A stretch of 64,000 bases of DNA, from NCBI GenBank assembly GCA_017479865.1, contig JAFVBS010000014.1, positions 4,532-68,531 on the forward strand, given 5' to 3'. The notes under the pieces are model-generated. The model was not told the origin of the DNA. It saw only the letters and a program-made list of their open reading frames with translations, and searched no databases. Below, in pieces: positions 24,961 to 43,801 of the stretch. The stretch is from Clostridia bacterium (GTDB lineage Bacteria; Bacillota; Clostridia; TANB77; CAG-508). The position numbers were made by a program, and so were the translations under genes. Positions within the stretch are counted from its first letter, which is position 1, and every line of letters begins with the position of its first letter.

Positions 24961-26507
24961 TTGCAATTGTTTAATAATCTTGCTCAAAACGAAGAGATAA
25001 AAGTATATGCTTTTATCGGACCATCAGGAACTGGCAAGAGTTACCGTGCACAGATGGTAGCCAGTGAAAACAATATTAATTATATTATTGATGATGGCAT
25101 TTTAATTAAGGATAATGGAATCATTGCGGGAAGTTCTGCCAAAAAGCGCCTACTAAAGTAGAAACTGTGAAAAAAGCTATTTTTTTAGATGAAAAAGAAA
25201 AAAATGAAATGAGAAGAGCTATTAGAAAATGCAAACCAGAAGCAATTCTCATTTTAGGAACTTCGGATGGAATGATCGACAAAATTACAGAAAATTTAGG
25301 ATTACCAAAGCCGGAAAAAAGAATTTATATCCAAGAAGTAGCAACAGAAGCCGAAATGGAAACAGCAAAAAGAATTCGTACCACACAAGGAAAACATGTT
25401 ATTCCTGTGCCTACCTTTGAAATCAAAAAAGACTTTTCGGGATACATTTTAGATCCACTTCAAATTTTTAAATTCAAGGGAAATGGAAATAACCCATATA
25501 TCGCAGAAAAGTCAATTATTAGGCCAACTTTTAGCTATTTAGGTAATTTTACCATTTCGGACACAGTGTTTAGACAAATTGCAGAATATTTAGCAAAAAA
25601 GTCAGATGCCATTTATAAAGTGGTGAGAAACAGGGTAGAAAGTACGCCAGAAGGACCTAACATTTATATGGAGGTTTCCATTAATTATGGATACAACATT
25701 CTTCAATCGTTAAGAAATTTTAGAACAAGAATTAAAAAAGAAATTGAAATACTCACAACCATGAATGTAAAAGAAATCACCATTGTTGCCAAAGGATTAC
25801 ATATGCCAGAAAAAGAAGAAGTAAAAGAGAAACAATCTCAAAAAACATTTATTGTAGCAATGGATGGACCAGCAGGCACGGGAAAGGGGACCATTGCCAA
25901 GCTCATTAGTCAGGAGATGAATTTAGTCAACATCGATACAGGAGCAATGTACCGTTGCGTAGCCCTAAAGGCACTTCAAACAAATGTGAAATTAGAAGAA
26001 ACAGAAAAATTAATTGCAATTTCGAATCATATCAAAATAGAGATAGAGAATAAAGAAGGAGTTCAAAAATTCTATTTAGATGGAAAAGATGTGACAGAAG
26101 AGATTCGTAGTAAAGAAGTGACAGCAATTGTTTCGCAAGTTTCAACAATTCCTGAAGTGCGTGAAAATATGGTTGCATTACAAAGAAAAATGGCAGAGGG
26201 AAAAAATGTAATTATGGAAGGAAGAGATATCACAACAGTGGTATTTCCCAATGCAAATGTTAAAATTTATTTAGATGCTGAAGTAGAAGAAAGAGCAAAA
26301 AGAAGATATGAAGAAAACATTGCCAAGGGAATGAAAACTACTTTGGAGGAAACGTTAGAGGCAATGAAACAAAGAGACTACAATGATATGCATAAACCAG
26401 TAGGAGCTTTAAAAATAGCAGAAGATGCAATTGTAGTAGATACCACCAAAATGACAATTGAAGAAGTAAAAAATAGAGTAAAAGAAATGATTAATAGTAA
26501 AAAATAA
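24961..26507 (+). pseudogene. cmk: P-loop NTPase / Asp23-like / cytidylate kinase composite gene with an apparent frameshift in an A5 run
   Basis: ORF 24961-25161 carries Walker A (FIGPSGTGKS) and stops at the TAG at 25159. The next frame is open from 25116 and continues into ORF 25167-26507. Adding one A to AAAAA (25141-25145) gives ...GSSAKKAPTKVETVKKAIFLDE.... The middle region is Asp23-like (IRPTFSYLGNFTISDTVFRQIAEY...). The C-terminal 220 aa is Cmk (IVAMDGPAGTGKGTIAKLIS, NIDTGAMYR). Confidence 0.7.
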
Positions 26508-27536: not shown

Positions 27537-27547
27537 TGGAAAGACAT

Positions 27548-27585
27548 ATCCTAAAATAGTAATTCTATTTTGGGATAGTTTTTTT
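27548..27585 (+). terminator. galE terminator
   Basis: ATCCTAAAATAG (27548-27559) pairs with CTATTTTGGGAT (27565-27576), and a T7 run follows. Confidence 0.6.
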
Positions 27586-27657
27586 AGAAAATTAGAAAAT
27601 ATTGTTGAAAAATGTAATAGAGTGATATATAATTAAAACAATGAAAAAAATGGAGTA

Positions 27658-29529
27658 ATGACAATGAATTTTTTGAAGTTGTGGGGAAAATATACAAAGC
27701 TAATATTAGGAATTATTGATATTATTATCATTTTTATTTCCTATTGTATTGCACAGGTATTTATCAAAGTAAATTACATTAATATTCATACCGTAATCAC
27801 GCAGCAACTAATTAATTCTGTGTTGGTTTCTATTTTTGTGTATGAAATATTTTTTCATTTATTTGATTTATATAAAAATATTACAAGCTATGAGGGCGCC
27901 AAGGAATATTTTTGCTATGCCTTAGCTTGCATGGTTTCTTGTGATATTGTTTCTATGTTAGGCATTCTATTAAACCTAAATCTAGTCACACCAAAGCAAC
28001 ATATATTAGCAGGCATTTTTGCTTCTATCATACTAGTATCTTACAGGGTTATCATACGTTTTTTATTAACCAATAAAATTACCAAAGGTCCAGAACTAGA
28101 AAGAAAAAATCTTCTAATTATTGGGGGAGGAGAAGCTGCCACTGATATTGTAAAAAGCATTAAGGCACATCAAATGGATCACTACGATATTGTTGGAATT
28201 ATTGACGATAACTCTAAAAAGAAAAATCGTAATATTAGTGGTGCAAGAGTAATTGGAAATCGCAATGATATTGTCAAGGCTTGCAAAGAGAGAAAAGTTG
28301 ATATTATTTTCTTTGCAATTTCTAATATTTCCGCGAAAGATAGAAAAGAAATTTTGGCTATCTGTCAAGAAACAGGAATTAAATTAAGGGTTCTTCCTGG
28401 ACTTCAGGATTTAATCAACGAAAAAAACATTTTACAAAGCTTAAGAGATGTAGAAATAGAAGATATTTTAGGAAGGGAACCTATTGTATTAGATAACCAA
28501 AATATTGCCACGTTAATTAAAAACCAAGTTATTATGATTACAGGGGCAGGAGGTTCTATTGGCTCAGAACTATGCAGACAAATTGCAAAATTTGAACCAA
28601 AAGAAATGGTGCTTTTGGATATTTATGAAAACAATTTATACGATATAGAATTAGAATTAAAAGAACAATATAAAAATATCAAAATAGATGCAGTGATCGC
28701 AAGCATTCGTGATAAAAATAAAATGGACAAGGTATTTGAAACATATAAACCTTATCTAGTATTCCACGCAGCAGCACATAAACATGTTCCACTAATGGAA
28801 GGAAGCCCATTAGAAGCAATTAAAAACAATGTATTTGGAACCTATCATGTGGTAAATTGTTGCGATAAGTATCATGTGAAGAGATTTGTTTTGGTCTCTA
28901 CTGATAAAGCAGTTAATCCAACCAATATTATGGGCGCAACCAAAAGAATGTGCGAAATGATTATTCAAGCAAAGGATAAAGTGAGTGAAACAGAGTTTGT
29001 TGCAGTTCGTTTTGGTAATGTATTGGGTAGCAATGGGTCAGTTGTTCCTTTATTCAAAAAACAGATTGCCAAGGGAGGACCCGTTACTGTAACCCATAAA
29101 GAGATTACAAGATTTTTTATGACCATTCCAGAAGCAGTACAATTGATATTACAAGCTACTACTTATGCAAAAGGTGGAGAAATTTTTGTACTTGATATGG
29201 GAGAACCAGTTAAAATTTATGACTTGGCAGTCAGCTTAATCAAATTGTCTGGCTTAGAGCCTAATGTGGATATTCCAATTGAAATTACAGGCTTGCGTCC
29301 GGGAGAAAAGCTATATGAAGAAATTTTGATGGCAGAAGAAGGGTTAAAGAGCACAGAACATGACAAAATATTTATTGCAAAGCCATCAAAAATAACAATG
29401 GAACAGCTAGAAAAGAAATTAGATGTGTTAAGAGAAACCATTCAAGATGAAAATATTTCATTAAAGAATATTAAACAAAATATGAAGGCAGCAGTGCCAA
29501 CTTATCAAGAAGAAAAAAGAAGTGAGTAG
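27658..29529 (+). CDS. Membrane-bound CapD/PglF-type UDP-N-acetylglucosamine 4,6-dehydratase
   Basis: 623 aa with four N-terminal TM helices and two Rossmann regions (IIGGGEAA; ITGAGGSIGSEL). It also has the SDR-type dehydratase motifs STDKAVNPTNIMGATK. Confidence 0.85.
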   Translation: MTMNFLKLWGKYTKLILGIIDIIIIFISYCIAQVFIKVNYINIHTVITQQLINSVLVSIFVYEIFFHLFDLYKNITSYEGAKEYFCYALACMVSCDIVSMLGILLNLNLVTPKQHILAGIFASIILVSYRVIIRFLLTNKITKGPELERKNLLIIGGGEAATDIVKSIKAHQMDHYDIVGIIDDNSKKKNRNISGARVIGNRNDIVKACKERKVDIIFFAISNISAKDRKEILAICQETGIKLRVLPGLQDLINEKNILQSLRDVEIEDILGREPIVLDNQNIATLIKNQVIMITGAGGSIGSELCRQIAKFEPKEMVLLDIYENNLYDIELELKEQYKNIKIDAVIASIRDKNKMDKVFETYKPYLVFHAAAHKHVPLMEGSPLEAIKNNVFGTYHVVNCCDKYHVKRFVLVSTDKAVNPTNIMGATKRMCEMIIQAKDKVSETEFVAVRFGNVLGSNGSVVPLFKKQIAKGGPVTVTHKEITRFFMTIPEAVQLILQATTYAKGGEIFVLDMGEPVKIYDLAVSLIKLSGLEPNVDIPIEITGLRPGEKLYEEILMAEEGLKSTEHDKIFIAKPSKITMEQLEKKLDVLRETIQDENISLKNIKQNMKAAVPTYQEEKRSE

Positions 29530-29546
29530 AGGAAAGAAGGCATATT

Positions 29547-30755
29547 ATGAAAATGAATATTCCATTTTCACCACCAGATATTGGGGAAGAAGAAATTAAA
29601 GAAGTAACAGAAGCTTTAAGATCCGGTTGGATTACAACAGGACCCAAAACGAAAGAATTTGAAAAAGAAATTGCAAATTTTTGTCATACAGAAAAAGCAG
29701 TTTGCTTAAACTCAGCAACAGCAGCATTAGAATTAACATTGAGAGTACTAGGAATTGGAGAAGGAGACGAGGTTATTACTTCTAGCTATACTTATACAGC
29801 ATCCGCTAGTCCAATAGCACATGTAGGAGCAAAAATTGTCTTAGTAGATGTGAAAAAAGATTCGTGGGAAATGGATTATGAGCAACTGGCTAATAGCATT
29901 ACAGAGAAAACAAAAGCAATTATTCCGGCAGATATTGCAGGAATTTTATGCGATTATAATAAAATATTTAAAATTGTAGAAGAAAAGAAGGATTTATTCC
30001 AAGCAAGCAACGAAATTCAGAAGATATATAACAGAATTGTTGTAGTGGCAGACTGTGCACATGGCTTTGGAGCACAACAAAATGGAAAACTGGCAGGAGA
30101 ACTTGCGGATTTTACGACATTTTCTTTCCATGCAGTTAAAAACTTAACAACAGCAGAAGGAGGAGCTGCTACATGGAAAAAGAAGGAAGGGTTGGATAAC
30201 GAAGAAATTTATCATCAATATCAACTATTATCTTTGCATGGACAAACCAAAGATGCTTTACATAAAAATGGATTAGGCGCATGGGAGTATGATATTGTTG
30301 CTCCATATTACAAATGTAATATGACAGATATTATGGCTGGAATTGGTTTAGCTCAAATGAAAAGATATCCTGACTTATTAAAAAGAAGGCAAGAAATAAT
30401 TGTTAAATACAACAAAGCTTTTGCTGACTTACCAATTGATCTATTAAATCATCATGATGAAAATCATACATCTTCAGGACATTTATATTTTACCAGGATC
30501 AAGGGCATTACTGAACAACAAAGAAATGAAATTATTATCAAAATGGCAGAACAGGGAATTGCTTGCAATGTGCACTACAAACCACTTCCAATGTTAACGG
30601 CTTATAAGAACCTAGGATTTGATATTAATCATTATCCAAATGCCTATGACTTTTATCATAATGAAATTACATTACCACTTTATACAAAACTAACGGATGA
30701 ACAGATAGACTATATTATTGAAAACTTTAAGAACATAGTAAGGGAGTTTATATGA
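29547..30755 (+). CDS. DegT/DnrJ/EryC1/StrS-family (PglE/WcfR-like) sugar 4-aminotransferase
   Basis: 402 aa. It has IPFSPPDIGEEEI..GWITTGPK, and the PLP-Lys context FSFHAVKNLTTAEGG. Confidence 0.85.
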   Translation: MKMNIPFSPPDIGEEEIKEVTEALRSGWITTGPKTKEFEKEIANFCHTEKAVCLNSATAALELTLRVLGIGEGDEVITSSYTYTASASPIAHVGAKIVLVDVKKDSWEMDYEQLANSITEKTKAIIPADIAGILCDYNKIFKIVEEKKDLFQASNEIQKIYNRIVVVADCAHGFGAQQNGKLAGELADFTTFSFHAVKNLTTAEGGAATWKKKEGLDNEEIYHQYQLLSLHGQTKDALHKNGLGAWEYDIVAPYYKCNMTDIMAGIGLAQMKRYPDLLKRRQEIIVKYNKAFADLPIDLLNHHDENHTSSGHLYFTRIKGITEQQRNEIIIKMAEQGIACNVHYKPLPMLTAYKNLGFDINHYPNAYDFYHNEITLPLYTKLTDEQIDYIIENFKNIVREFI

Positions 30756-31450
30756 TTTTCAAAAAGTGGGATGCAATACCAGAAAACTTAAAAAATGAAG
30801 AAACAAAGAAATATTATGATATTCTTTCTAGAAAAAAAATACAATTATGCTTGAAAAGAATATTTGATTTTATGATATCTTTTATTATGCTAATTTTATT
30901 ATCACCTTTTTTGCTTATTATGGCAATCATCATTAAAATTGATTCAAAAGGCCCAGTATTTTACAGGCAAGAAAGAATAACACAATATGGTAGAATGTTT
31001 AAAATTTTTAAGTTTCGAACCATGGTACAAAATGCAGATAAAATAGGAAGTTTAGTAACACTAGGAGAGGATCCAAGGATTACAAGGGTTGGCAAGAAAA
31101 TAAGAAAATATCGTATTGATGAAATCCCTCAATTAATTAATATTTTGATGGGAGACATGTCTTTTGTAGGAACAAGACCAGAGGTAAAAAAATACACAGA
31201 CTTATATACTGATGAAATGAAAGCAACTTTGCTTATGCCAGCAGGAGTAACCTCAAGAGCAAGTATTGAATATAAGGATGAAGATCAAATGATTAATACT
31301 TACCTAAATAAAGGTGAAAAAGTAGATGACATCTATGTTAACAGAGTTTTACCAGAAAAAATGAAATGGAACTTGAAATATATTGAAGAATTTAATATAT
31401 TGAAAGATATCAAAATTATGTTAGATACAGTGATAGGAGTAATGAAATAA
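30752..31450 (+). CDS. Small monotopic phosphoglycosyl transferase (PglC/WcfS-type initiating sugar transferase)
   Basis: 232 aa with one re-entrant helix. It has GPVFYRQERI...FKIFKFRTM and DEIPQLINILMGDMSFVGTRP. Confidence 0.88.
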   Translation: MIFKKWDAIPENLKNEETKKYYDILSRKKIQLCLKRIFDFMISFIMLILLSPFLLIMAIIIKIDSKGPVFYRQERITQYGRMFKIFKFRTMVQNADKIGSLVTLGEDPRITRVGKKIRKYRIDEIPQLINILMGDMSFVGTRPEVKKYTDLYTDEMKATLLMPAGVTSRASIEYKDEDQMINTYLNKGEKVDDIYVNRVLPEKMKWNLKYIEEFNILKDIKIMLDTVIGVMK

Positions 31451-31465
31451 AAGGGAGGAACGGCT

Positions 31466-32209
31466 TTGGAAGATTTAGTGTCTATTGTAACACCTACGTA
31501 TAACTGTGCTAAATTTATAGCAGAGACGATAGATTCTGTATTACAACAAACTTATTCAAATTGGGAAATGATTATTGTTGATGATGCTTCAAAAGACAAT
31601 ACAGAAGAAATAGTAAAAAGATATGATGATAATAGAATTAAATATATTCGATTAGAAGAAAATGGTGGGGCTGCTGTTGCAAGAAATACAGCGATGCGTG
31701 AAGCAAAAGGAAAATATATTGCATTTCTTGATAGTGATGATTTGTGGAAGCCTGAAAAATTAGAAAAGCAAATTGCATTTATGAAACAACATAATTATAA
31801 CATTACAGCCACTGATTATGAACAAATTAGTGAAGAGGGAGAGTCACTTCACAAAATTATTAGAACAAAGAAAAAAGTAAATTATAATGGAATTTTGCTA
31901 AGTTGTCCTGTGGGAAATTCAACAGTAATGTATAATGTAGAAAATTTAGGAAAATTTGAAGTGCCTAATATTAGAAAACGCAATGATGATGCTTTATGGC
32001 TTCAAATGTTAAAAAAAGAAAAATATATTTATGGAATGCCAGAAGTATTAATGAAATATAGAGTAAGGGCCAACTCTATTTCAAGCAAAAAGATAGATTT
32101 GGTAAAATATCACTGGTATTTGTATAGAAAAATAGAGCACCTGTCGTTCATTAGATCAACATTTCATATATTTTGGTGGGGAGCGATTAAAATTTTACAT
32201 ATCAAGTAG
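31466..32209 (+). CDS. Family 2 glycosyltransferase
   Basis: TTG start after AAGGGAGG. It has VSIVTPTYN and the DD/DSDD motifs. Confidence 0.8.
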   Translation: MEDLVSIVTPTYNCAKFIAETIDSVLQQTYSNWEMIIVDDASKDNTEEIVKRYDDNRIKYIRLEENGGAAVARNTAMREAKGKYIAFLDSDDLWKPEKLEKQIAFMKQHNYNITATDYEQISEEGESLHKIIRTKKKVNYNGILLSCPVGNSTVMYNVENLGKFEVPNIRKRNDDALWLQMLKKEKYIYGMPEVLMKYRVRANSISSKKIDLVKYHWYLYRKIEHLSFIRSTFHIFWWGAIKILHIK

Positions 32210-32220
32210 GAGGAAGTGCT

Positions 32221-33006
32221 GTGAAAGTTCAGGTTCTAGTGGCAACAATGAATCAAGAAAATATAGAAGAATTATTAAATAATATAAATATTTCAACGGA
32301 AGCAATTATTGCAAATCAAACCAATAATTTTTCGTACAATTACTTAATGCATAAACAAAAAAAGATAGATATATATAATTTTAATGAAAGAGGAGTGGGC
32401 TTAAATAGAAATAATGCCTTAATGAGAGCAAATGCTGATATTGTATTATTTGCAGATGACGATATAGAATACAGGGATGGATACGAACAAATAATATTAG
32501 ATGAGTTTAGGAATAATCCTAAAGCTGATATGATATTTTTTAATTTATGTAATAATGATGATTTACGAACCAGATATATGATAAAAAAATGCAGAAGAGT
32601 ACATAGATACAATTGCTTAAGATATGGTGCAGTGAGGATTGCCGTTAAATTAGATAAGATAAAAGAAAATAATATATTTTTTTCGTTGCTATTTGGTGGT
32701 GGAGCAAAATATGGATCGGGAGAAGACAGTATTTTTATCTATGATTGTATTAAATCTGGATTAAAGGCATATTCATCTCCAAAGGAAATACTCACGCTAA
32801 AGGAAAGTGAATCGACATGGTTTAAAGGATATAACGAAAAATATTTTTATGATAAAGGAGCATTGCTTAGATGTATATTTGGTAAAAAAGCAAGAATTGT
32901 AATATTTTTATTTATATTAAAGCATTATAAAAATATGATAAAGGTTGGAATTAATAAGGCATATCGACAAATGATTAAAGGATATAAAGAGTTTTCCAGC
33001 AAATAA
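32221..33006 (+). CDS. GT-A-fold glycosyltransferase (putative)
   Basis: GTG start after AGGAGGAAG. It has VLVATMNQ... and FADDDIEY. Confidence 0.6.
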   Translation: MKVQVLVATMNQENIEELLNNINISTEAIIANQTNNFSYNYLMHKQKKIDIYNFNERGVGLNRNNALMRANADIVLFADDDIEYRDGYEQIILDEFRNNPKADMIFFNLCNNDDLRTRYMIKKCRRVHRYNCLRYGAVRIAVKLDKIKENNIFFSLLFGGGAKYGSGEDSIFIYDCIKSGLKAYSSPKEILTLKESESTWFKGYNEKYFYDKGALLRCIFGKKARIVIFLFILKHYKNMIKVGINKAYRQMIKGYKEFSSK

Positions 33007-33024
33007 CATGGAGGAAATAAAAAT

Positions 33025-34248
33025 ATGGTTATATATATAGAAATTATTGCTATTATGTTATTGGCTATATTTTTGGATGAAGAAAAATTTAAAAAATATG
33101 GTATACCGATAATATTTATTTCATTAATACTCATAGTTGGTTCGAGAAATTACCTGGGACTAGATGATGTGAATTATATTGAAGTTTATAATAACGTGAG
33201 TATGGGTAATTTATCGGAGACCAGAAATATGGAGCAGACATACATATGGATATCGAAGATTCTTTCAATGATGGGATTGAATTATAAGGCATTATTTTTA
33301 CTATATTCTGCATTAACTTTCTTTTTTATAGCAAGTGCCTTAAAAAAACTTGAACTTAAAAAATATAAATATGTTTTATTTTTATTATCATATCTTGCTT
33401 TTAACTTTTTTCCGTTTTTAACAACAATGCGCCAAGCTCTAGCTATGAGTATGGTATTTTTAGCAGCAGTTTTATGTTATAAAAATAAAATAGTGAAATC
33501 TATGATACTTGTTGTTGTTGCTGGTTTTTTTCATAATAGTGCTTGGCTAACATTACCATTTATACTTCTATTCGTAAAAAACGTAAAAATAAATAAAACA
33601 ATAAAGATATTTATTCCAATTATTTGCTTAATAATAAGTAAGACTAACATGATTTACTTTATTGTTGAAAAACTTAATGATATATTAAAACTTGGATATG
33701 ATAGTTATATTTTAAGTATAAAAGAAACTGGATTTATCACAAAGGGAATTGTTACTACGATTATGTTTTTATTATATGCAAGTCAATGCTTTATCAATAA
33801 CATTACTCAGTTAAAAACAGATATTATTACGCAAGATAATAATAATAAAGAGATAGCTGATGTAAACAAGATGGCTTTTCTTCAAAGACAAAAAGATATA
33901 ATATATAATAAATTGATTAAGCATATAAAAAAATGGTTTATATGCAATGACAAAGAAACAGAAAATGAAAAAGATGAATTTTTTGAAAAAGGAGAATTAT
34001 TATTCTTTTCAATATTTATATTGACATATAGATTGGGATTTATAGCACGATTTGCCTATTATTTTATTATATATGAAAATTTTATATTATTAAATATAAT
34101 AGAAAAATTAAAAGAAGAAAAAATAAAAAAAGTGGCAATAGCAATTGCCTTGATAATGTTAGTATTATTAGATATATACACAATAAACACAACAACTCTA
34201 GCGGGAAATTTAAGTTTTGATAATTTTTCGTTTAATATTATATTTTAG
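33025..34248 (+). CDS. EpsG-family / Wzy-type repeat-unit polymerase
   Basis: 407 aa with about 11 TM helices and an EpsG-like N-terminus (GSRNYLGLDDVNYIEVY). It is extremely AT-rich. Confidence 0.6.
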   Translation: MVIYIEIIAIMLLAIFLDEEKFKKYGIPIIFISLILIVGSRNYLGLDDVNYIEVYNNVSMGNLSETRNMEQTYIWISKILSMMGLNYKALFLLYSALTFFFIASALKKLELKKYKYVLFLLSYLAFNFFPFLTTMRQALAMSMVFLAAVLCYKNKIVKSMILVVVAGFFHNSAWLTLPFILLFVKNVKINKTIKIFIPIICLIISKTNMIYFIVEKLNDILKLGYDSYILSIKETGFITKGIVTTIMFLLYASQCFINNITQLKTDIITQDNNNKEIADVNKMAFLQRQKDIIYNKLIKHIKKWFICNDKETENEKDEFFEKGELLFFSIFILTYRLGFIARFAYYFIIYENFILLNIIEKLKEEKIKKVAIAIALIMLVLLDIYTINTTTLAGNLSFDNFSFNIIF

Positions 34249-34256
34249 GAGTAAGT

Positions 34257-35204
34257 ATGATAAAAATTAGTATTATAGTTCCAGTATATAATGTAGAACA
34301 ATATTTAGCAAGATGCTTAGACTCATTAGTAAATCAAACTATGCAAGAAATTGAGATAATAGTAGTTAACGATGGCTCAACTGATAATTCAGAGAAAATT
34401 ATAGAAAAATATAAACAAAAATATAGCAATATTATATACTATGTAAAAGAAAATGGAGGACTTTCAGATGCAAGAAATTATGGCTTATATAGAGCAAAAG
34501 GAGAGTATATTATATTTGTTGACTCCGACGACTTAATAGAAACAAGCACTTGTCAAGAGCTGTACCAAAAGGTCACTAAGCATAATTTAGATATATTAAA
34601 ATTTAATTATTATGATGAAAAGAACAATAGAAATGGTCTTAATGAGAGATTAAATTATTTAAATAAATTATACACGGGTGAAGAATATTTAAAACAAGTT
34701 TTGTCTCAAGGAGAAGTTTCAATAGTAGCTTGGAATGCAATATATAAAAGAGAATTTTTACAACAAAATAATTTTTGGTTTAAAAAAGGTATTTTGCATG
34801 AGGATGAGTTGTGGACACCACAAGTAATGATAAAAGCAAAAAGAATTATGCAAATTCCAGAGGTTTATTATTATTATAAATCTAATCCAACATCCATAAC
34901 TGCCAAAAAAGATAAAACAAAAAATGCATTAGATATTATAAATTCTTGTTATGAATTAGATAATGTATACAAAGATATATATGATAAAAAATTAAAGAAA
35001 ATGTTAGAAAATACATTAGTAACAAAATATCTAGAGGCCTTTGTCATGGGAAAATTATATAGAAATGAGACAATAAAATATGTTAAGAAACAATTTCTTG
35101 TAAAAAAAAGCTATACATTAAGAAATAAATTAAAGGTTGCGTTATTTTTGATAAGTGATAAACTTTATTATAAATTGAATGTGATGAAAAATAAGGAGAA
35201 GTAA
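34257..35204 (+). CDS. Family 2 glycosyltransferase
   Basis: ISIIVPVYNVEQYLARCLDSLVNQT..IIVVNDGSTDNS and FVDSDD. Confidence 0.85.
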   Translation: MIKISIIVPVYNVEQYLARCLDSLVNQTMQEIEIIVVNDGSTDNSEKIIEKYKQKYSNIIYYVKENGGLSDARNYGLYRAKGEYIIFVDSDDLIETSTCQELYQKVTKHNLDILKFNYYDEKNNRNGLNERLNYLNKLYTGEEYLKQVLSQGEVSIVAWNAIYKREFLQQNNFWFKKGILHEDELWTPQVMIKAKRIMQIPEVYYYYKSNPTSITAKKDKTKNALDIINSCYELDNVYKDIYDKKLKKMLENTLVTKYLEAFVMGKLYRNETIKYVKKQFLVKKSYTLRNKLKVALFLISDKLYYKLNVMKNKEK

Positions 35205-35205
35205 A

Positions 35206-36300
35206 ATGAAAATATTATTTGCCATAGATACTATGACAAAGGGCGGGGCAGAAAGAGTAATTTCAAATTTATCAAATTACTTAATAGAAGATAATAAAGT
35301 TGAAATATTGACATTACTTGATAGAGAATGTGCATATGAATTAAATGAAAAAATTAAATTTCATTCTCTCAAAATTTCGGAAAAGAAGAAAAATATTTTT
35401 GAAAAAGTAATTTATACATTAAAAAATGTAAAAAAATATATCAAACAAATTGAACAAATAGAGCCAGATATCATAATATCCTTTTTACCAAGGTCTTCTT
35501 ATTATGCAATAATTGCATCTATGAAAAATAAAATTAAAATACTTGTTTCAGAAAGAAATGATCCAAATGAGGAATACAAAAATGCTGTAGATAGGCTCTT
35601 GATGAATATATTATATAAAAGAGCCACTGGATTTATTTTTCAAACTGAACAAGCACAGCATTATTATAATAAAAAGATACAGCAAAGATCAGTTATTATT
35701 CCAAATCCAATTGATGAAAAATTTTTATGTGAGCCTTACAAACATAATCGTAGAGATGAAATTGTCACTGCAGGAAGGCTAACAGAACAAAAAAATCAAA
35801 TAATGTTAATAAACGCATTTGAAATTGTAAAACAGAAATATCCACAATATATTTTAAAAATATATGGAGATGGACCATTGAAAGATGAATTACAAGAAAT
35901 TATTTTTGATAAAAAGCTTGAAAAGAGTGTATTTTTATCTGGAATTACAAATAATCTTAAAGAAGATATATATGAATCCGGTATTTTTGTAATGTCTTCT
36001 AATTATGAAGGTATGCCGAATGCACTAATGGAGGCTATGGCTATGGGAATACCTGTTGTATCTACAGATTGCCCATGTGGAGGACCAAAATTTTTAATAG
36101 GTAATAACGAAAATGGGTTATTAGTAAAAGTGAATGACACAAACAATATGGCTAATGCCATAATTAGGCTTATTGATGATAAAGATTTAGCCCAACAACT
36201 ATCAAACAATGCACATAAAAAACTGGAAACTATGCATCCAAATATAATTAATGATAAATGGAAAAAATATATATATTCTATAGAAAATAATAACAACTAA
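35206..36300 (+). CDS. Family 4 (GT-B) glycosyltransferase
   Basis: EGMPNALMEAMAMGIPVVSTDCPCGGPKFLI, an E-x7-E-type motif. Confidence 0.85.
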   Translation: MKILFAIDTMTKGGAERVISNLSNYLIEDNKVEILTLLDRECAYELNEKIKFHSLKISEKKKNIFEKVIYTLKNVKKYIKQIEQIEPDIIISFLPRSSYYAIIASMKNKIKILVSERNDPNEEYKNAVDRLLMNILYKRATGFIFQTEQAQHYYNKKIQQRSVIIPNPIDEKFLCEPYKHNRRDEIVTAGRLTEQKNQIMLINAFEIVKQKYPQYILKIYGDGPLKDELQEIIFDKKLEKSVFLSGITNNLKEDIYESGIFVMSSNYEGMPNALMEAMAMGIPVVSTDCPCGGPKFLIGNNENGLLVKVNDTNNMANAIIRLIDDKDLAQQLSNNAHKKLETMHPNIINDKWKKYIYSIENNNN

Positions 36301-36322
36301 AATTGTTAAAAAGGGAGAAAAA

Positions 36323-37255
36323 ATGATAAAGTTAAATGAGATGATACATTATATATTAAATCCTAAATCTATGTTATTAAAACTAGACAATAGAAGGATA
36401 ATTACTCTAAACGATAAGAAATATCTAAATATTGTATATGAGAACGCTTTTAATAAAACAATAAATTGGAATAATCCACAAACATTCAATGAAAAACTAC
36501 AATGGCTCAAATTATATGATAGAAATCCTGAGTATACAAAAATGGTGGACAAATATGAGGCAAAAAAATATGTGGCTGACATTATTGGAGAAGAATATAT
36601 TATTCCAACATTAGGTGTATGGGAAAGATTTGAGAATATTAATTTTGAAGAATTACCAAATCAATTTGTACTCAAATGTACTCATGATTCTGGGGGATTG
36701 GTAATATGCAAGGATAAAAAAGAGTTTAATATAGATAAGGCCAGAAGAAAAATAAATGAATGCATGAAAAAAAACTACTATTACGCAGGAAGAGAATGGC
36801 CATATAAAAATGTAGAACCTAGAATTATAGCAGAAAAATATATGGTAGAGGAAAATAGTGAAGAACTAAAAGACTATAAATTTTTATGCTTTAATGGAAA
36901 AGTTAAATGCTCTTTTGTATGCACAGAAAGATATTCAAAGGAAGGACTGAAAGTTACATTTTTTGATTTAGATTGGAATAGAATGCCATTTCAAAGACAC
37001 TATCCTGCATCAGAAAAACCAATTAATAAACCAATAAATTATGAACAAATGATTCAAATTTCAGAAACATTATCTAAAAACGTACCATTTGTTAGGGTAG
37101 ACCTATATGAAATAAATAATAAAGTGTATTTTGGAGAGTTAACATTCTTTCCTGGATGTGGATTCGAAGAATTTACACCAGAAGATTGGGATAAAAAATT
37201 AGGAGATTGGATACAATTACCTGATATAAAATTAGAGGAATCATATGAGAAGTAA
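36323..37255 (+). CDS. TupA-like ATP-grasp amidoligase family protein
   Basis: NPQTFNEKLQWLKLYDRNPEYTKMVDKYEAKKYV, FVLKCTHDSGG and VRVDLYEINNKVYFGELTFFPG. Confidence 0.75.
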   Translation: MIKLNEMIHYILNPKSMLLKLDNRRIITLNDKKYLNIVYENAFNKTINWNNPQTFNEKLQWLKLYDRNPEYTKMVDKYEAKKYVADIIGEEYIIPTLGVWERFENINFEELPNQFVLKCTHDSGGLVICKDKKEFNIDKARRKINECMKKNYYYAGREWPYKNVEPRIIAEKYMVEENSEELKDYKFLCFNGKVKCSFVCTERYSKEGLKVTFFDLDWNRMPFQRHYPASEKPINKPINYEQMIQISETLSKNVPFVRVDLYEINNKVYFGELTFFPGCGFEEFTPEDWDKKLGDWIQLPDIKLEESYEK

Positions 37256-39734
37256 AAAAGCTATTTTAAATATTGTAGTATCATTAGTGCTACAAATCGT
37301 AACACTAATCTGTGGTTTTATTGTGCCAAAACTACTAATTAAAAACTTTGGCTCAGATGTTAATGGGTTAACATCATCCATTACACAATTTTTAGCATAT
37401 ATTACGTTACTAGAAGCGGGATTTGGTCCAGTAGTAAAAGCAGCACTATATAAGCCAATTGCAAAAAAAAATAAAAAAGAAATTGACAATATATTAAAAG
37501 CCAGTGAAAGGTTTTTTAGAATTATTGCTCTCATCTTTGTTATTTATTTAGTTGTTTTAGCAATTATATATCCAATGTTTGTAAATACTCAATTTGACTA
37601 TTTATTTACGATGTCGTTAGTACTCATTATTTCAATTAGTACTCTTGCAGAATATTACTTTGGTATGACATATCAATTATACTTGCAAGCAGAGCAAAAG
37701 ACATATGTTACTGCAACAATACAAATTATTGGATATATTTTAAATACAGTTGCAATATTGATATTAGTGAAATTTAATTTTAGTATACAGATAGTTAAAC
37801 TAGTAAGTGGAATCATCTTTGTATTAAGACCATTAGCACAAAATATGTATGTAAAGAAAAAATACAAATTAAATTTAAAAGAAGCAGATAAGAATTACCA
37901 ATTAAAACAAAAATGGGATGGACTAGCTCAACATATTGCAGCGGTAGTACACAATAATACAGACATTACAATTTTAACTATTTTTACAGAAATGACTGAA
38001 GTATCAGTATATTCAGTTTATTATTTAGTAGTTAAGGGAATTAAAGCAATTATCCAGGCCTTTACTGGAGGAATTGATGCTTCTTTTGGAGATATGATAG
38101 CAAGGGGCGAGAAAGAACAGTTAAATAAAAGTTTTAATGCATATGAATTATTTTATTTTACCATTACAACCATTGCCTATACATGTACTCTGATATTAAT
38201 AGTTCCATTTATTAAGGTTTATACGGCAGGAATTACAGATGCCAATTATATTAGACCGCTATTTGCATCTTTGTTGGTAATTAGTGAGTTTATTTGGGCA
38301 GTTAGATTACCGTATAGTGGGCTAACATTAGCTGCGGGGCATTTTAAACAAACAAGAAAAGGAGCATGGGTAGAAGCAATTAGTAATATAGTAATATCGC
38401 TCATTCTAGTTTGGAAATTAGGAATTACTGGAGTTGCAATTGGCACTCTTGTAGCAATGGCTATTAGAACTGTAGAATTTATGTATCATAGTTCAAAGCA
38501 TATATTAGATAGAAGCATTTTGAATAATGTAAAAAGGGTTCTAATTATTTTTATCGAAGTACTAACAATAGTAGGAATTGTCCAATTATTACCAGAAATG
38601 GTAATAGAATCGTATACTTCATGGATAGTTTATGCAATTTATGTAGCAATGATAGCAACGATCGTGACAATTTTATTTAACTTTATTGTATATAAAAGGG
38701 ATGTCAAAGGATTAATTTCAATTATCAAAAGGAGCTTAACAAGAAAGGAAAATAAAAGCATGAAAACATATTTCGTAACTGGTGGAGCTGGATTCATAGG
38801 CTCTAGTCTATGTGAAAGACTATTAAAAGAAGGTAACAAAGTAATAGCAATTGATAACTTTTGTGACTTCTATTCGCCAAAAGTAAAAGAGCATAATATA
38901 AAAGGGTTATTAGAAAATAGTAATTTTAAATTATATCGAAATGACATTAGAGACAAAGAAGCAATCAAAAAAATATTTGATGAGAATCATATTGATGTGG
39001 TAGTTCATTTAGCTGCGATGGCAGGAGTAAGGCCTTCTATTGAGAACCCAGTGCTATACCAAGAAGTAAATTGTATGGGAACGCAAAATATTTTGGAAGA
39101 AATGAAAGCACACAATATAAATCAATTAGTTATGGCATCTTCTAGCAGTGTGTATGGTAATTGCAAAGAAGTACCTTTTAAGGAAGATATGATTGTCGAC
39201 TTTGCCATTAGCCCTTATGCGGCAACCAAAAAAGCTAATGAAGTGATGACACATGTATATCACCAATTATTTAATATGAAAGTGATTATGCTAAGGTTTT
39301 TTACTGTATATGGTCCAAAGCAAAGGCCTGATTTAGCCATTAATAAATTTACCAGATTAATGCTAGCAGATGAAGAAATTCCAATGTTTGGCGATGGAAC
39401 CACCTCAAGAGATTATACTTATATTGACGATATTGTAGATGGCATTATCAGGTCATGTGACTATGTAGAAAAAAATGAAAACGTGTATGAAATTTTAAAT
39501 TTAGGAAACTCTTCACCGGTATCATTAAAAGAAATGATTGAAACCATTGCAAAGGTAATAGGAGTAACTCCAAAAATTAATCAATTACCAATGCAGCCAG
39601 GTGATGTAGAAAGAACTTTTGCAGATGTATCAAAGGCAAAGCAATTGATTGGATATAATCCAAAAACAAGTTTTGAGGATGGCATTAAAAGTTTTGTGAA
39701 TTGGTATCAGCAAAATAGGGGACTATATCAATAA
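37245..39734 (+). CDS. Single 829-aa ORF joining a Wzx-type flippase (aa 1-505) and an NAD-dependent UDP-glucuronate 4-epimerase-like SDR (aa 506-829)
   Basis: The N-terminal 14-TM MOP/Wzx-like region runs in frame, with no stop, into MKTYFVTGGAGFIGSSL...YAATKKANE. The internal ATG at 38760 is preceded by GAAAGGAAA. Confidence 0.7.
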   Translation: MRSKKAILNIVVSLVLQIVTLICGFIVPKLLIKNFGSDVNGLTSSITQFLAYITLLEAGFGPVVKAALYKPIAKKNKKEIDNILKASERFFRIIALIFVIYLVVLAIIYPMFVNTQFDYLFTMSLVLIISISTLAEYYFGMTYQLYLQAEQKTYVTATIQIIGYILNTVAILILVKFNFSIQIVKLVSGIIFVLRPLAQNMYVKKKYKLNLKEADKNYQLKQKWDGLAQHIAAVVHNNTDITILTIFTEMTEVSVYSVYYLVVKGIKAIIQAFTGGIDASFGDMIARGEKEQLNKSFNAYELFYFTITTIAYTCTLILIVPFIKVYTAGITDANYIRPLFASLLVISEFIWAVRLPYSGLTLAAGHFKQTRKGAWVEAISNIVISLILVWKLGITGVAIGTLVAMAIRTVEFMYHSSKHILDRSILNNVKRVLIIFIEVLTIVGIVQLLPEMVIESYTSWIVYAIYVAMIATIVTILFNFIVYKRDVKGLISIIKRSLTRKENKSMKTYFVTGGAGFIGSSLCERLLKEGNKVIAIDNFCDFYSPKVKEHNIKGLLENSNFKLYRNDIRDKEAIKKIFDENHIDVVVHLAAMAGVRPSIENPVLYQEVNCMGTQNILEEMKAHNINQLVMASSSSVYGNCKEVPFKEDMIVDFAISPYAATKKANEVMTHVYHQLFNMKVIMLRFFTVYGPKQRPDLAINKFTRLMLADEEIPMFGDGTTSRDYTYIDDIVDGIIRSCDYVEKNENVYEILNLGNSSPVSLKEMIETIAKVIGVTPKINQLPMQPGDVERTFADVSKAKQLIGYNPKTSFEDGIKSFVNWYQQNRGLYQ

Positions 39735-39802
39735 ATATTTCTTGCACTTTAAGATATATTGATATATAATGGGTCAAGAATATAAAATATAGGAGGATAA
39801 AA

Positions 39803-41104
39803 ATGAAACAATATAAAATAGCAGTAGCAGGAACAGGTTATGTAGGATTAGTTGCTGGAGTGTGCTTTGCAGAAAAAGGACATCAAGTAATTTGTGTTGA
39901 TGTTGATGAGAAAAAAGTGGAAACAATGAAAAAGGGAATTTGCCCAATTTATGAACAAGATCTAGAAGAATTAATGCAAAAAAATTATCAAGCAGGAAGA
40001 TTAAACTATACCACAGACTATAAAGGAGCTTACAAAGATGCAGATGCTATTTTTATTGGTGTTGGTACACCAGAACAACCAGATGGTTCTGCTAATTTAA
40101 GTTATGTAGCAACAGTTTCAAGACAAATTGCAGAAACGATTGAAAAAGATTGTTTAGTAGTAGTGAAATCAACAGTACCAATTGGTACCAATGACAAAGT
40201 GGAACAATTTATTAAAGATTCTTTAGTCAATAATGTTAAAGTAGAAGTAGCAAGTAACCCAGAATTCTTAGCACAAGGAACAGCAGTAAGAGATACTTTA
40301 GAAGCAAAAAGAATTGTGATAGGAACAGAAAGCAAAGAAGCAGAGAGAAAATTATTAGAAATTTATGAACCATTTCATTTACCAATTGTTTCTGTCAATA
40401 GAAGAAGCGCAGAAATGATTAAATATGCTTCTAATGATTTCTTGGCATTAAAAATTTCGTACATGAATGATATTGCAAATCTTTGTGAATTAGTAGGAGC
40501 TAACATTGAAGATGTGGCAAAAGGAATGAGCTATGACCCAAGAATTGGAGCAAATTTCTTGAAAGCCGGAATTGGTTATGGTGGATCTTGCTTCCCAAAA
40601 GATACAAAAGCATTGAAGTATTTAGCAAAACAAAACGGGTATCAATTAAAAACTGTAGAAGCGGCAGTTGATGTTAATAAAGAACAAAAGATAAAATTGT
40701 ATCAAAAAGCATGCGATAGGTTAATTACATTTCATGATTTAAAGGTAGCAGTTTTAGGACTAGCCTTTAAACCAGGAACAGATGACTTAAGAGAAGCTCC
40801 ATCATTAGATAATGTAGAGTTATTGTTAAAACAAGGAGCAAAAATTTACGCTTATGACCCTGTTGCAATGGAAAACTTTAAAAGAAAATATCCAGAACAA
40901 ATCACATATGTTAACTCTCCAGAAGAGGCATTAAAAATGGCAAATGTATGCTTCATTTTTACTGAATGGAATGAAATTAAATCTGTTAAGCCTAGCAAAT
41001 ATAAAGAATTGATGAAAACACCATTAGTGTATGATGGAAGAAACATTTATGATTTAAAAGAGATGAAAGATGCAGGTGTTGAATATTATTCAATTGGTAG
41101 ATAA
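39803..41104 (+). CDS. ugd: UDP-glucose 6-dehydrogenase
   Basis: IAVAGTGYVGLV, and the catalytic Cys context GYGGSCFPKDTKAL. Confidence 0.92.
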   Translation: MKQYKIAVAGTGYVGLVAGVCFAEKGHQVICVDVDEKKVETMKKGICPIYEQDLEELMQKNYQAGRLNYTTDYKGAYKDADAIFIGVGTPEQPDGSANLSYVATVSRQIAETIEKDCLVVVKSTVPIGTNDKVEQFIKDSLVNNVKVEVASNPEFLAQGTAVRDTLEAKRIVIGTESKEAERKLLEIYEPFHLPIVSVNRRSAEMIKYASNDFLALKISYMNDIANLCELVGANIEDVAKGMSYDPRIGANFLKAGIGYGGSCFPKDTKALKYLAKQNGYQLKTVEAAVDVNKEQKIKLYQKACDRLITFHDLKVAVLGLAFKPGTDDLREAPSLDNVELLLKQGAKIYAYDPVAMENFKRKYPEQITYVNSPEEALKMANVCFIFTEWNEIKSVKPSKYKELMKTPLVYDGRNIYDLKEMKDAGVEYYSIGR

Positions 41105-41128
41105 CTTGCATAATGGGGAGGAAACAAA

Positions 41129-42604
41129 GTGAGCGAAGAGAGAAGAACAAAAAAGAGCGATACCAATAAACTAAATTCAAAGAAAAGGTCAGGAGCATTA
41201 GATGCTATTTTAAAATTAATGGCATTTGTATATGTGGTTATCACAATAATCTTTTATATTTCTGTTATCAAAATGAACTTATTGCCAGGAATGTATGTTA
41301 CTATTTTTACAGTTGCAGAAATAGTATTAACATTTGCAATAGTGATAGGTTTAGTAAAGAAACATAAAAAAGCTACATTGAATGTGATTTGCTTAATTGC
41401 AATTCTTCTAATTTCAATAGTATATGTATATGTATCTAATTATGCTTTTGCAACATCCAACTTTTTAAGCAATGTATTCACAAAATTTTCAGAAACAGAG
41501 GAGTATTATATTGTAGTTAAAAGTGATAGCAAATATCAAAAGGTAGAAGATATTAAGGGACAAGAGGTATATTTATTTCAAATAGAAGATGATATTAAAA
41601 CCGAAATTGCTGGTAAAGCAAGTATTACTTTCAAATCAACCAATGGATTAACAGAAATTGGTGACCAATTAGTAAATAGCAAAATACAAGCAATTGTAGT
41701 AAGTTCTGCACAATATAGTATGCTATCAGAAGAAATCAAAGATTTTCAAAAGAAGACAAAAATTATTTATACAGTAACGCACAAAATTGAAACTAAAGCA
41801 ACGATAGCAGATCAAAATTCAACAGCAAAAGTACAAAATGGCGTATTTAACGTATATATTAGTGGTATTGATACAGCGGGTAAAATTACCAATGTTTCAA
41901 GAAGTGATGCTAATATTCTTGCCACCGTCAATACGAAAACACATGAAATCTTATTAACTTCTATCCCAAGAGATTACTATGTTACTTTGCACAGCAAAAG
42001 GGCAAAGGATAAATTAACTCATTCTGGTATTTATGGTGTTAATGAAACAGTAACAACAATAGAGGACTTGTTAGGTATTGATATTAATTATTATGTAAGA
42101 GTTAACTTTACAACAGTCATTAAATTGGTAGATACATTAGGTGGAATTGATATTAATTCAGATTATACATTTACAGCGTGGGATGGTACTTATTTTCAAA
42201 AAGGATATAATCATTTAGATGGAGCAAAAGCACTATCATTTAGTAGAGAAAGAGAATCTTTTGTTGCAGGAGATAATCAGAGAATCAAAGACCAGCAAAT
42301 TGTCATTGAAGCAATTATTAATAGGGTGATGGACAGCAAAACAATTTTGACAAAATATACTAGTATTTTAAACTCCTTAGAAGGTACCTTCCAAACCAAT
42401 ATTAGTCAAGACGAAATTAGCAGTTTAGTAAGAGATCAATTAAGCAATATGTCTTCTTGGACAATTAAGACCTATTCTTTAACTGGTACAAATGCGACTG
42501 CAACTACTTATTCAATGGGAAGTCAAAGACTATATGTTATGATTCCAAATAGTAGCTCTGTACAAGAAGCAAAGAGCAAAATTAGTCAAGTAATGGGAAA
42601 ATAA
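41129..42604 (+). CDS. LytR-CpsA-Psr (LCP) family glycopolymer transferase with an extended N-terminal region
   Basis: GTG start after GGGGAGGAA. It has three TM helices and the LCP core NILATVNTKTHEILLTSIPRDYYV...LSFSRERESFVAGDNQRIKDQQ. Confidence 0.85.
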   Translation: MSEERRTKKSDTNKLNSKKRSGALDAILKLMAFVYVVITIIFYISVIKMNLLPGMYVTIFTVAEIVLTFAIVIGLVKKHKKATLNVICLIAILLISIVYVYVSNYAFATSNFLSNVFTKFSETEEYYIVVKSDSKYQKVEDIKGQEVYLFQIEDDIKTEIAGKASITFKSTNGLTEIGDQLVNSKIQAIVVSSAQYSMLSEEIKDFQKKTKIIYTVTHKIETKATIADQNSTAKVQNGVFNVYISGIDTAGKITNVSRSDANILATVNTKTHEILLTSIPRDYYVTLHSKRAKDKLTHSGIYGVNETVTTIEDLLGIDINYYVRVNFTTVIKLVDTLGGIDINSDYTFTAWDGTYFQKGYNHLDGAKALSFSRERESFVAGDNQRIKDQQIVIEAIINRVMDSKTILTKYTSILNSLEGTFQTNISQDEISSLVRDQLSNMSSWTIKTYSLTGTNATATTYSMGSQRLYVMIPNSSSVQEAKSKISQVMGK

Positions 42605-42694: not shown

Positions 42695-43216
42695 ATGAGT
42701 AAAACAAAGCTAATTTTAATTAGAATTTTATTTTTAGGCCTACTAATAGCAACCTTTGCACTTATTTTTCACTTTTCTTCGCAAATTGCAGAAGAATCTG
42801 ATGGAGTAAGCAAGGGCTTATTAACTAAACTAATTAATGTTTTTCCTTATACTAAGCATTTGAGTGTAGAAACAAAATTAAAACTTGTTGAGCATGGCAA
42901 TCCAATTATTCGAAAGTTAGCACATTTTTCCATTTACGCTGCCGTAGGTGTTTGGATTATGGCATTTATGAGTACCTTTCAAATAAGACTATATAAAAAG
43001 TGGTTTGCCAGCATGGCTGTTGGAGTTGCTTATGCAGCCTTAGATGAGTACCATCAAAGTTTTGTTGCAGGAAGAGGACCACAATTGATGGATGTTGGAA
43101 TTGACAGCTTAGGAGTATTAACAGGAATTTTTGTTGTGTTAATAGTTATTTCAATTTATAGGGCACTGAAAGGTGATAAAGAAAATAATCAAAGAGAAAG
43201 GGTGCATACTTTATGA
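42695..43216 (+). CDS. VanZ-family membrane protein
   Basis: RKLAHFSIYAAVGVW and DEYHQSFVAGRGPQLMDVGIDSLGVLTG. Confidence 0.8.
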   Translation: MSKTKLILIRILFLGLLIATFALIFHFSSQIAEESDGVSKGLLTKLINVFPYTKHLSVETKLKLVEHGNPIIRKLAHFSIYAAVGVWIMAFMSTFQIRLYKKWFASMAVGVAYAALDEYHQSFVAGRGPQLMDVGIDSLGVLTGIFVVLIVISIYRALKGDKENNQRERVHTL

Positions 43217-43801
43217 TGAGAGCAATTGTTGTAGGGCTGATACATATTTTTTGCTTAGCTGTATTTCGTGTCAAAACAGTAGGAGCAAAAAACGTACCAA
43301 AAAAGGGAGCATATATTATGTGTGCCAACCACACATCAAACTGGGATCCACCGATTTTGGTATCTTCGACCAAACGAAAAATGTATGTCATGGCGAAGCA
43401 AGAGTTATTTAAAAATAATTTTATTAAATGGTTTGCTAAAAAAATGCGGAGTATTTCCTGTAAAAAGAGGTGGAAAGGATATCGAATCTCTTAAGTTTTC
43501 ATTAAAAATTTTAAAAGAAGGAAAAATTCTTATGATTTTCCCAGAAGGCACAAGACATGGCATGGCAAAAAACGGAAAAGCACAAAACGGAGCAGCATTT
43601 ATGGCATTGCGTGCAGGAGTGCCAGTCATTCCTGTGGGAATTCAAGGAGAGATGAAACCATTTCACAAAGTAAAATTAAATTACGGAAAACCATTGGACT
43701 TTAGCAGGTACCAGAGTAATAAGCCAGAAAAAGAGGTACTAGACAAAGTTAGTAAAGAAATTATGGACAATATTATTATGTTGACAAAACAAAATATTTA
43801 G
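43213..43801 (+). pseudogene. plsC: 1-acyl-sn-glycerol-3-phosphate acyltransferase with a frameshift in an A7 run
   Basis: The HX4D motif (ANHTSNWD) is in ORF 43213-43494, and FPEGTR plus the rest is in ORF 43322-43801. Reading AAAAAAA (43438-43444) as A6 gives ...FIKWFAKKCGVFPVKRGGKD..., a 195-aa protein. Confidence 0.85.

Follow-up and report, generated by a model that had tools for sequence, protein, structure and literature searches.

The stretch of DNA analysed here (the window) is 64,000 nucleotides (nt) of a 72.7-kb contig from a Clostridia bacterium whose assembled genome is 999 kb long (28 contigs, 93% complete), and it contains a polysaccharide locus of 12 plus-strand open reading frames (ORFs) at positions 27658-42604 (~15 kb). 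The explanation that we favour, to which we give about an even chance, is that these genes form one operon, whose product would be a Wzx/Wzy-type heteropolysaccharide that an LCP-family protein links to the cell wall and that begins with the amino sugar AATGal (FucNAc4N) and contains an amidated uronic acid. The original prediction for this locus had deduced a possibly zwitterionic polymer from the pairing of a free amine with a uronic acid; that deduction does not stand as it was put, since it overlooked a gene for a TupA-like ATP-grasp protein, a predicted amidoligase whose relative amidates glucuronic acid (GlcA) (PMC11800379).

The identities, family placement and order of the genes, the lack of an acetyltransferase and the GT4-TupA coupling in related loci are directly observed; from them we infer the following pathway, and with it the stereochemistry of its sugars, which substrate and amine the ligase takes, and what net charge the product has. 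A PglF-type dehydratase and a Spr1654-type aminotransferase would convert UDP-GlcNAc to UDP-2-acetamido-4-amino-2,4,6-trideoxyhexose, most likely the AATGal (FucNAc4N) form, and a small phosphoglycosyl transferase (PGT) would transfer this sugar to undecaprenyl phosphate with its 4-amine left free. Three GT2 and one GT4 glycosyltransferases would extend the unit, with UDP-GlcA and UDP-galacturonic acid (UDP-GalA) coming from UDP-glucose 6-dehydrogenase (Ugd) and an epimerase, and the TupA-like ATP-grasp, in partnership with the neighbouring GT4, would use ATP to activate the C6 carboxylate of the uronic acid on the lipid-linked intermediate and amidate it; the amine is probably a free amino acid, since the locus has no amine-making genes. 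A Wzx domain would then flip the unit, an EpsG-family protein would polymerise it and the LCP protein would ligate the product to peptidoglycan.

The initiating module and its predicted free amine

The trio of enzymes that was predicted to start the pathway, a PglF/CapD dehydratase, a DegT aminotransferase and a small PGT, is indeed present (PF02719, PF01041 and PF02397, respectively). The first gene (27658-29529, + strand) encodes a 623-amino acid (aa) PglF/CapD-type, membrane-anchored UDP-GlcNAc 4,6-dehydratase in which the PF02719 domain (1.7e-126) occupies residues 292-575 and is preceded by an N-terminal CoA_binding_3 domain (PF13727, 1.1e-10). Among solved structures it comes nearest to C. 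jejuni PglF/WlaL (5BJU, 5e-99, 335 bits), while the inverting PseB/FlaA1 type (2GN4) scores only 168 bits; since PglF scores higher, the product should be UDP-4-keto-6-deoxy-GlcNAc with its C5 configuration retained.

The second gene (29547-30755, + strand; 402 aa, PF01041 2e-96) is predicted to encode a UDP-AATGal-forming sugar 4-aminotransferase. Residues 3-399 align without a gap to residues 10-406 of S. pneumoniae Spr1654 (PDB 6EWJ; 2.3e-167, 560 bits; identity roughly 60-65% as judged from the printed alignment), the motif around the pyridoxal phosphate (PLP) lysine, SFHAVKN, is identical in the two proteins, and the match covers the stretches of Spr1654 that have been termed unique insertions (PMC5936713). 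The runner-up solved matches are ArnB (191 bits), PseC (137 bits) and PglE (97 bits). Spr1654 is an essential S. pneumoniae aminotransferase that is proposed to make UDP-AATGal for teichoic acid (PMC5936713), and the product here is most likely a sugar with an axial (galacto) 4-amine, i.e., AATGal.

The third gene (30752-31450, + strand), which overlaps the aminotransferase gene by 4 nt, encodes a small monotopic PGT of 232 aa (PF02397 4.7e-58) that consists of the Bac_transf domain alone (residues 35-231), with no WbaP-type N-terminal membrane bundle. It matches PglC (8E37) at 2e-24, but solved structures do not discriminate its type, as PglC and WbaP each give ~89 bits. For comparison with related loci, the window proteins were mapped by tblastn and blastp onto 80 loci around TupA homologues that are 49-68% identical to the one in the window (110 TupA-like genes in all; 43 of the loci are full-length). 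The PGT is 52-66% identical to its counterpart in 9 of the 10 such loci that have a Spr1654-type aminotransferase (at least 61% identity) and 29-43% identical elsewhere. UDP-FucNAc4N is the reported substrate of small PGTs from S. pneumoniae, F. nucleatum and B. fragilis (WcfS) (PMC11257628); that the PGT of this locus may share this preference is indicated indirectly, by the 4-nt gene overlap and the bimodal distribution of identities. The three genes taken together support an initiating module of the AATGal (FucNAc4N) type.

Would the 4-amine stay free? The locus had been said to lack a PglD-like hexapeptide acetyltransferase, and a genome-wide search agrees with this and extends it: NeuD/PglD-family and Hexapep searches, and a search at the PseH cut-off, found no sugar N-acetyltransferase in the locus or, unlinked, in the assembled 93%-complete genome. 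The sole hexapeptide protein of the genome is CysE (243 bits against a cut-off of 211), and GlmU also gave no match in the assembly, where only the hexapeptide repeats of CysE turn up. Three GNAT proteins are present: RimI, encoded beside TsaB; a RimJ-like protein, encoded near rpoD; and a generic one (189 aa, contig C16). None reaches the PseH cut-off. Because the aminotransferase is of the Spr1654 type and the genome shows no sugar N-acetyltransferase, a free 4-amine on the initiating sugar is well supported at the level of the genes.

Uronic acids, the TupA-like ligase and polymer charge

Supply of both UDP-GlcA and UDP-GalA, as originally predicted, is supported by two gene products. The 433-aa Ugd (39803-41104, + strand) has three UDPG_MGDP_dh domains, and its nearest solved relatives are UDP-glucose dehydrogenases (4A7P, 8.4e-118), while a UDP-ManNAcA dehydrogenase scores only 152 bits; it scores 463 bits with TIGR03026 and 527 bits with the TuaD model, the latter below the equivalog cut-off. 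The predicted UDP-glucuronate 4-epimerase domain (38760-39734, + strand) is a 324-aa short-chain dehydrogenase/reductase that makes up residues 506-829 of the tenth ORF (below); its nearest solved relatives are 5U4Q (1.6e-83) and the B. cereus UDP-GlcA 4-epimerase BcUGAepi (6ZL6, 1.3e-65), and GalE, WbgU and WbpP types (1e-42 to 1e-46) lie well behind.

The ninth gene (36323-37255, + strand), absent from the earlier gene inventory, encodes the 310-aa TupA-like ATP-grasp (PF14305 3.2e-84, model positions 1-240 of 241), lies 22 bp after the GT4 gene and overlaps the flippase gene. Its family is very large, exceeding 8000 homologues at E<=1e-10, charged columns are invariant across 26 of the homologues, and no solved relative is detectable by a sequence search of solved structures. 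One member has been characterised: the TupA-like C-terminal domain of C. jejuni Cj1438 (Cj1438C), which is fused to a GT2 and amidates the C6 carboxylate of GlcA (PMC11800379). For other family members, the attachment of amino acids to surface polysaccharides is a prediction (PMC13419641).

The neighbours of the 110 TupA-like genes suggest with which enzymes this protein may work. A GT4 homologue adjoins 41 of them (29 upstream and 13 downstream) and the Wzx type of this locus is downstream of 18, while DegT, PGT or CapD genes adjoin none (0/110). A full GT4 and TupA are joined as single ORFs of 660-665 aa in two related loci (L012:10912-12894 and L016:8846-10843), and a third has the reverse, TupA-GT4, order (L011:5755-7665). 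In many related loci, moreover, two to four GT4/TupA cassettes stand in tandem. Among the 43 full-length loci a GT4 is found in 29 and, within 10 kb, an NDP-sugar dehydrogenase in 22 and a Spr1654-type aminotransferase in 8, and uronic-acid genes stand alongside in 14 of the 20 loci with the best TupA homologues. Of 300 genomes sampled evenly across the class, 40 were TupA-positive, and 33 of these (83%) have an NDP-sugar dehydrogenase compared to ~148 of 259 (57%) TupA-negative genomes, an odds ratio of 3.5 (Fisher p 0.003) in which related genomes are not independent. Since Cj1438C amidates glucuronate, and since TupA genes pair with GT4 and never with the aminotransferase or PGT, we conclude that the uronic carboxylate is probably amidated by the TupA-like ligase.

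The presence of an amide-forming ligase means that the net charge of the polymer cannot be read from the genes. The Ugd and epimerase genes for a retained anionic group are there, yet the TupA-like amidoligase may turn that carboxylate into an amide. An amide with an amino acid could keep a carboxylate and hence a zwitterionic polymer, one with lysine could add both charges, and one with an amino alcohol could remove the negative charge and leave a net cationic polymer; a "zwitterionic" product is plausible. There is also a very slim chance that the ligase uses the polymer's own AATGal 4-amine on the activated uronic carboxylate, giving amide (lactam or inter-chain) cross-links; if true, this would be peptide-free covalent polysaccharide cross-linking in the sole wall glycopolymer of a 1-Mb genome.

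The remaining genes and the setting of the locus

The flippase and the epimerase, previously listed as separate genes, are one in-frame 829-aa ORF (37245-39734, + strand); the earlier list also left out the ATP-grasp, but every gene that it named is in place. Its Wzx/MOP-like flippase domain (residues 1-505; 37245-38759, + strand) was assigned by Atlas structural neighbours, which are ~500-aa stand-alone proteins at TM 0.91-0.98, some with a Polysacc_synt match (PF01943 or PF13440). The basic N- and C-terminal tails of this domain are consistent with cytoplasmic ends; a simple hydropathy count gives 11 partly overlapping segments, which is unreliable as a number of transmembrane helices. At the junction the epimerase retains its own ATG with the sequence AAGGAA 9 nt ahead of it, and a TAA is present in another frame. 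Contigs of public runs X1 and X3 cover the junction and show no insertion, deletion or other difference, and a homopolymer error in this metagenome-assembled genome was rejected as the origin of the fusion on that ground; the two runs are from the same study and X1 is possibly the source of the assembly, which limits their independence. Three genomes of the same genus have stand-alone epimerase frames of 329-342 aa (79-81% identity) with the Ugd-LCP block behind them as here, the Wzx and epimerase matches fall in different frames in related loci from other taxa, and the fused frame was found in this genome only among 41 relatives searched. The fusion is unusual, and its position coincides with the border between a variable upstream part and a conserved epimerase-Ugd-LCP block.

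The four further glycosyltransferases (three GT2, one of them weak, and one GT4), the EpsG-type polymerase and the LCP ligase that had been predicted are all present. A TuaG-like GT2 of 247 aa (31466-32209, + strand; PF00535 1.4e-45) scores 298 bits with NCBIfam TuaG, under the 400-bit cut-off, and is followed by a divergent GT2-like protein of 261 aa (32221-33006, + strand) that matches PF00535 at only 1.1e-06 (residues 45-121) and has a homologue in 1 of the 80 related loci. The 407-aa EpsG-family membrane protein (33025-34248, + strand; PF14897 1.4e-34) is the putative Wzy polymerase. Then come a 315-aa GT2 (34257-35204, + strand; PF00535 1.9e-41) and the 364-aa GT4 retaining glycosyltransferase (35206-36300, + strand; PF00534 4.9e-35), whose best solved relative is PglH/WlaC (6EJI, 2.7e-31). 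The locus had been said to end with Ugd and the epimerase, but its last gene encodes the 491-aa LCP-family (CpsA-like) glycopolymer-to-peptidoglycan transferase (41129-42604, + strand; PF03816 5.7e-38; NCBIfam Cps2A-type 340 bits). PGT, EpsG and Wzx thus make up a Wzx/Wzy pathway set in one locus, with Wzx assigned through the Atlas structural neighbours alone.

The extent of the locus was predicted exactly. All 12 ORFs are intact, with no in-frame CGG codon, and are tightly packed (intergenic gaps of -11 to 68 bp). A boundary region at 27547-27633 (+ strand), recognised by consensus matches only, has a terminator-like hairpin (27547-27577) 3' of the upstream galE and a promoter-like site (TTGAAA-17-TATAAT, 27605-27633, 11/12 consensus match) just 5' of the first gene; because both precede it, a start at 27658 fits the transcription unit. 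No terminator-like site was found directly 3' of the LCP gene, and the downstream VanZ and PlsC-like genes may be co-transcribed with the locus. A +1 frame break divides the PlsC-like acyltransferase gene (43213-43801) precisely at the CGG at 43447 (ATG CGG AGT), the only CGG of the examined region, and this sequence is reproduced in contigs of run X7. Farther downstream, an in-frame TAA (45028-45030) interrupts BipA/TypA; position 45028 is a G in contigs of X1 and X7, which gives GAA, and so the stop is an assembly variant or error and not a population-wide broken gene. Upstream of the locus lie two divergent membrane proteins of 520 and 490 aa with weak PMT_2 (GT-C) matches (21812-23374, - strand, and 23474-24946, + strand), possibly extracytoplasmic glycosyltransferases for the decoration of a wall polymer, and a 446-aa cytidylate kinase ORF (25167-26507) with a ~225-aa N-terminal extension that has a weak Asp23-family match.

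GC content is low across the window (~31%); it is 24-28% over 32-38 kb, the glycosyltransferase/polymerase/ligase core, versus 30-33% in the flanks, and such a dip (32000-38000) is typical of exchanged serotype-specific regions. The aminotransferase occurs in 7 of 24 other species of the genus, the epimerase in 3 of 24 and, within the host's family, TupA-like genes in 1 of 7 other genomes, and this patchy occurrence argues that the locus is variable rather than core. The public runs that hold the organism are animal gut metagenomes; runs X4-X6, in which it has only small shares, were left out of this habitat reading.

The PGT is the sole Bac_transf gene of the assembled genome, in which no TagO-type initiator was found (the single PF00953 member is MraY-sized). 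Because the locus thus carries the only glycan-initiating transferase of a 1-Mb genome, its product is possibly the organism's main wall polymer. No PF02706 (Wzz/CpsC chain-length regulator) match is present in the genome and CpsC/CpsD were likewise not found, so a wall polysaccharide fits better than a regulated capsule. Elsewhere in the genome, three TagF-like glycerophosphotransferase genes adjoin dnaE at a contig end (contig C14:1-4414, L094) and, in this genome with one PGT and no TagO-type initiator, may add glycerol phosphate to the locus product. A second sugar cluster (contig C18:4874-12244, L095) contains an NTP_transferase, an Fe-ADH_2 protein (glycerol-1-phosphate-dehydrogenase-like), a GT4, a second NDP-sugar dehydrogenase 27% identical to Ugd, and a 646-aa fusion of radical-SAM and APH-kinase domains.

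Alternative explanations and known systems

Several considerations weigh against an AATGal-initiated, amidated wall polymer. The functions of the locus proteins are predicted from their genes, the Spr1654 paper itself presents the sugar reaction and its product as proposed rather than directly demonstrated (PMC5936713), and the N-terminal 505 aa of the flippase-epimerase ORF have no Pfam match even at E<=1. The enrichment of NDP-sugar dehydrogenases in TupA-positive genomes is of modest size, with relatedness and genome size as confounders; such a gene is absent from seven of the 40 TupA-positive genomes (96-99% complete) and from the 10 kb around roughly half of the TupA loci, so the tie of the family to uronic acids is a tendency and not a rule. 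Amine-supply genes like those of C. jejuni HS:2 (PLP enzymes, a HAD phosphatase) are absent from the 12 ORFs, which makes the amine donor a guess, and an unlinked acetyltransferase could sit in the missing 7% of the genome, from which GlmU was also not recovered.

If the ATP-grasp acts elsewhere or substoichiometrically, the product would be a classical zwitterionic polymer like the pneumococcal type 1 capsule, with free-amine AATGal and unmodified GlcA/GalA. The AATGal module is here, as is the Ugd and UDP-GlcA 4-epimerase pair, which is the combination found in pneumococcal type 1, no acetyltransferase was found, and the TupA-positive genomes that lack a dehydrogenase imply that TupA-like enzymes can have other substrates. 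We nonetheless consider this explanation unlikely, given that the ATP-grasp gene lies within the operon, with 22 bp between it and the preceding GT4 gene and an overlap with the flippase gene, that its only characterised relative amidates a uronic acid, and that uronic-acid genes accompany the closest TupA homologues (14 of the best 20 loci). The ATP-grasp might instead attach an organic or amino acid to the initiating sugar by N-acylation of its 4-amine, which would then not be free. In B. cereus, Pyl ligates 2-oxoglutarate to UDP-FucNAc4N to give UDP-yelosamine (Hwang 2014, cited in PMC11257628), an amine is on offer in a locus without an acetyltransferase, and four related loci (L015, L024, L028 and L045) carry a Spr1654-type aminotransferase and TupA with no uronic-acid genes within range. 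Such acylation is improbable in our view: the B. cereus ligase gene is directly upstream of the PGT gene (PMC11257628), whereas here the PGT gene overlaps that of the aminotransferase and the ATP-grasp is 5 kb downstream, none of the 110 TupA-like genes adjoins DegT, PGT or CapD, and 35 of the 43 full-length TupA loci have no Spr1654-type aminotransferase.

Capping of the 4-amine by an unlinked acetyltransferase, either a GNAT or a gene in the unassembled 7%, would give a neutral sugar of the diNAcBac/FucNAc4NAc type and leave the polymer simply acidic. At 93% completeness the assembly shows not even a GlmU, and the generic 189-aa GNAT on contig C16 has no assigned role; on the other side, dedicated 4-N-acetyltransferases are normally encoded in the locus, which is contiguous here, no PglD/NeuD-type or PseH-type match reached its cut-off, and Spr1654-type enzymes sit in free-amine pathways, and we judge such capping to be quite improbable. 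Could the locus be decaying, with the Wzx-epimerase fusion disabling one or both functions so that little or no polymer is made? The fused frame is confined to this genome among the 41 relatives searched, and the genome is strongly reduced. However, the 12 ORFs are intact with no in-frame CGG, contigs of two samples have the same junction, the epimerase retains its own ATG and the ribosome-binding-site-like AAGGAA, and the PGT is the genome's only glycan initiator; in addition, the basic tail after the last hydrophobic segment suggests a C-terminus in the cytoplasm, where a fused cytosolic enzyme could be accommodated. We give decay very little credence.

The locus is real but fairly ordinary, and genome mining for zwitterionic polysaccharides from WcfR/WcfS-type gene pairs is established practice (PMC10167101). 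AATGal start modules are common in gut bacteria. Since polysaccharides that bear AATGal, such as B. fragilis polysaccharide A (PSA), the pneumococcal serotype 1 capsule and pneumococcal teichoic acid, have immunological activity, an example from gut Clostridia is of some interest. Two points are more useful. Charge assignments made from "aminotransferase plus Ugd" are unsafe where a TupA-like ATP-grasp is present, and the GT4-TupA pair, sometimes fused, is a widespread predicted "add and amidate" cassette in whose ligase family one member has been characterised.

The closest parallel to the start of the pathway is S. pneumoniae teichoic-acid initiation (Spr0092, Spr1654 and a small PGT that acts on UDP-FucNAc4N), which has the same three-enzyme start, free amine and LCP attachment; the pneumococcal PGT is likened to that of the locus by description, not by sequence. 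In the window, however, the three genes are contiguous and head a Wzy-type operon, and uronic acids and an ATP-grasp take the place of ribitol phosphate and phosphocholine. The serotype 1 capsule and PSA share the predicted AATGal initiating sugar and an acidic group with this locus, a likeness to WcfR/WcfS that was again set by description and not by direct sequence comparison. Unlike it, their loci have no TupA-like ATP-grasp, and the negative charge of PSA comes from a pyruvate ketal where uronic acids are expected here. Cj1438 of C. jejuni HS:2 shares a TupA-like ATP-grasp that is coupled to a glycosyltransferase in a polysaccharide locus with a UDP-glucose dehydrogenase, and its glycosyltransferase-ligase fusion is echoed among relatives of the TupA gene of the locus. 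The partner here is a separately encoded GT4 rather than a fused GT2, export is by Wzx/Wzy rather than ABC/Kps, and serinol- and ethanolamine-phosphate supply genes are lacking in the window locus; the likeness of its TupA-like protein to Cj1438C is one of family description and not of pairwise similarity. The B. cereus UDP-yelosamine pathway (Pdeg, Pat, Pyl and a small PGT) likewise combines a 4,6-dehydratase, a 4-aminotransferase, an ATP-grasp and a PGT with no acetyltransferase, but Pyl, to which the present ligase is likened by description, modifies the nucleotide sugar and has its gene immediately ahead of the PGT gene, whereas the ligase gene here is distal and paired with a GT4. Finally, the B. 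subtilis tua operon shares a TuaD-like Ugd (527 bits), a TuaG-like GT2 (298 bits) and an LCP-attached anionic wall polymer with this locus, although both scores fall below their equivalog cut-offs, the initiating sugar is a different one, and the Wzy/EpsG polymerase and ATP-grasp distinguish the locus in the window.

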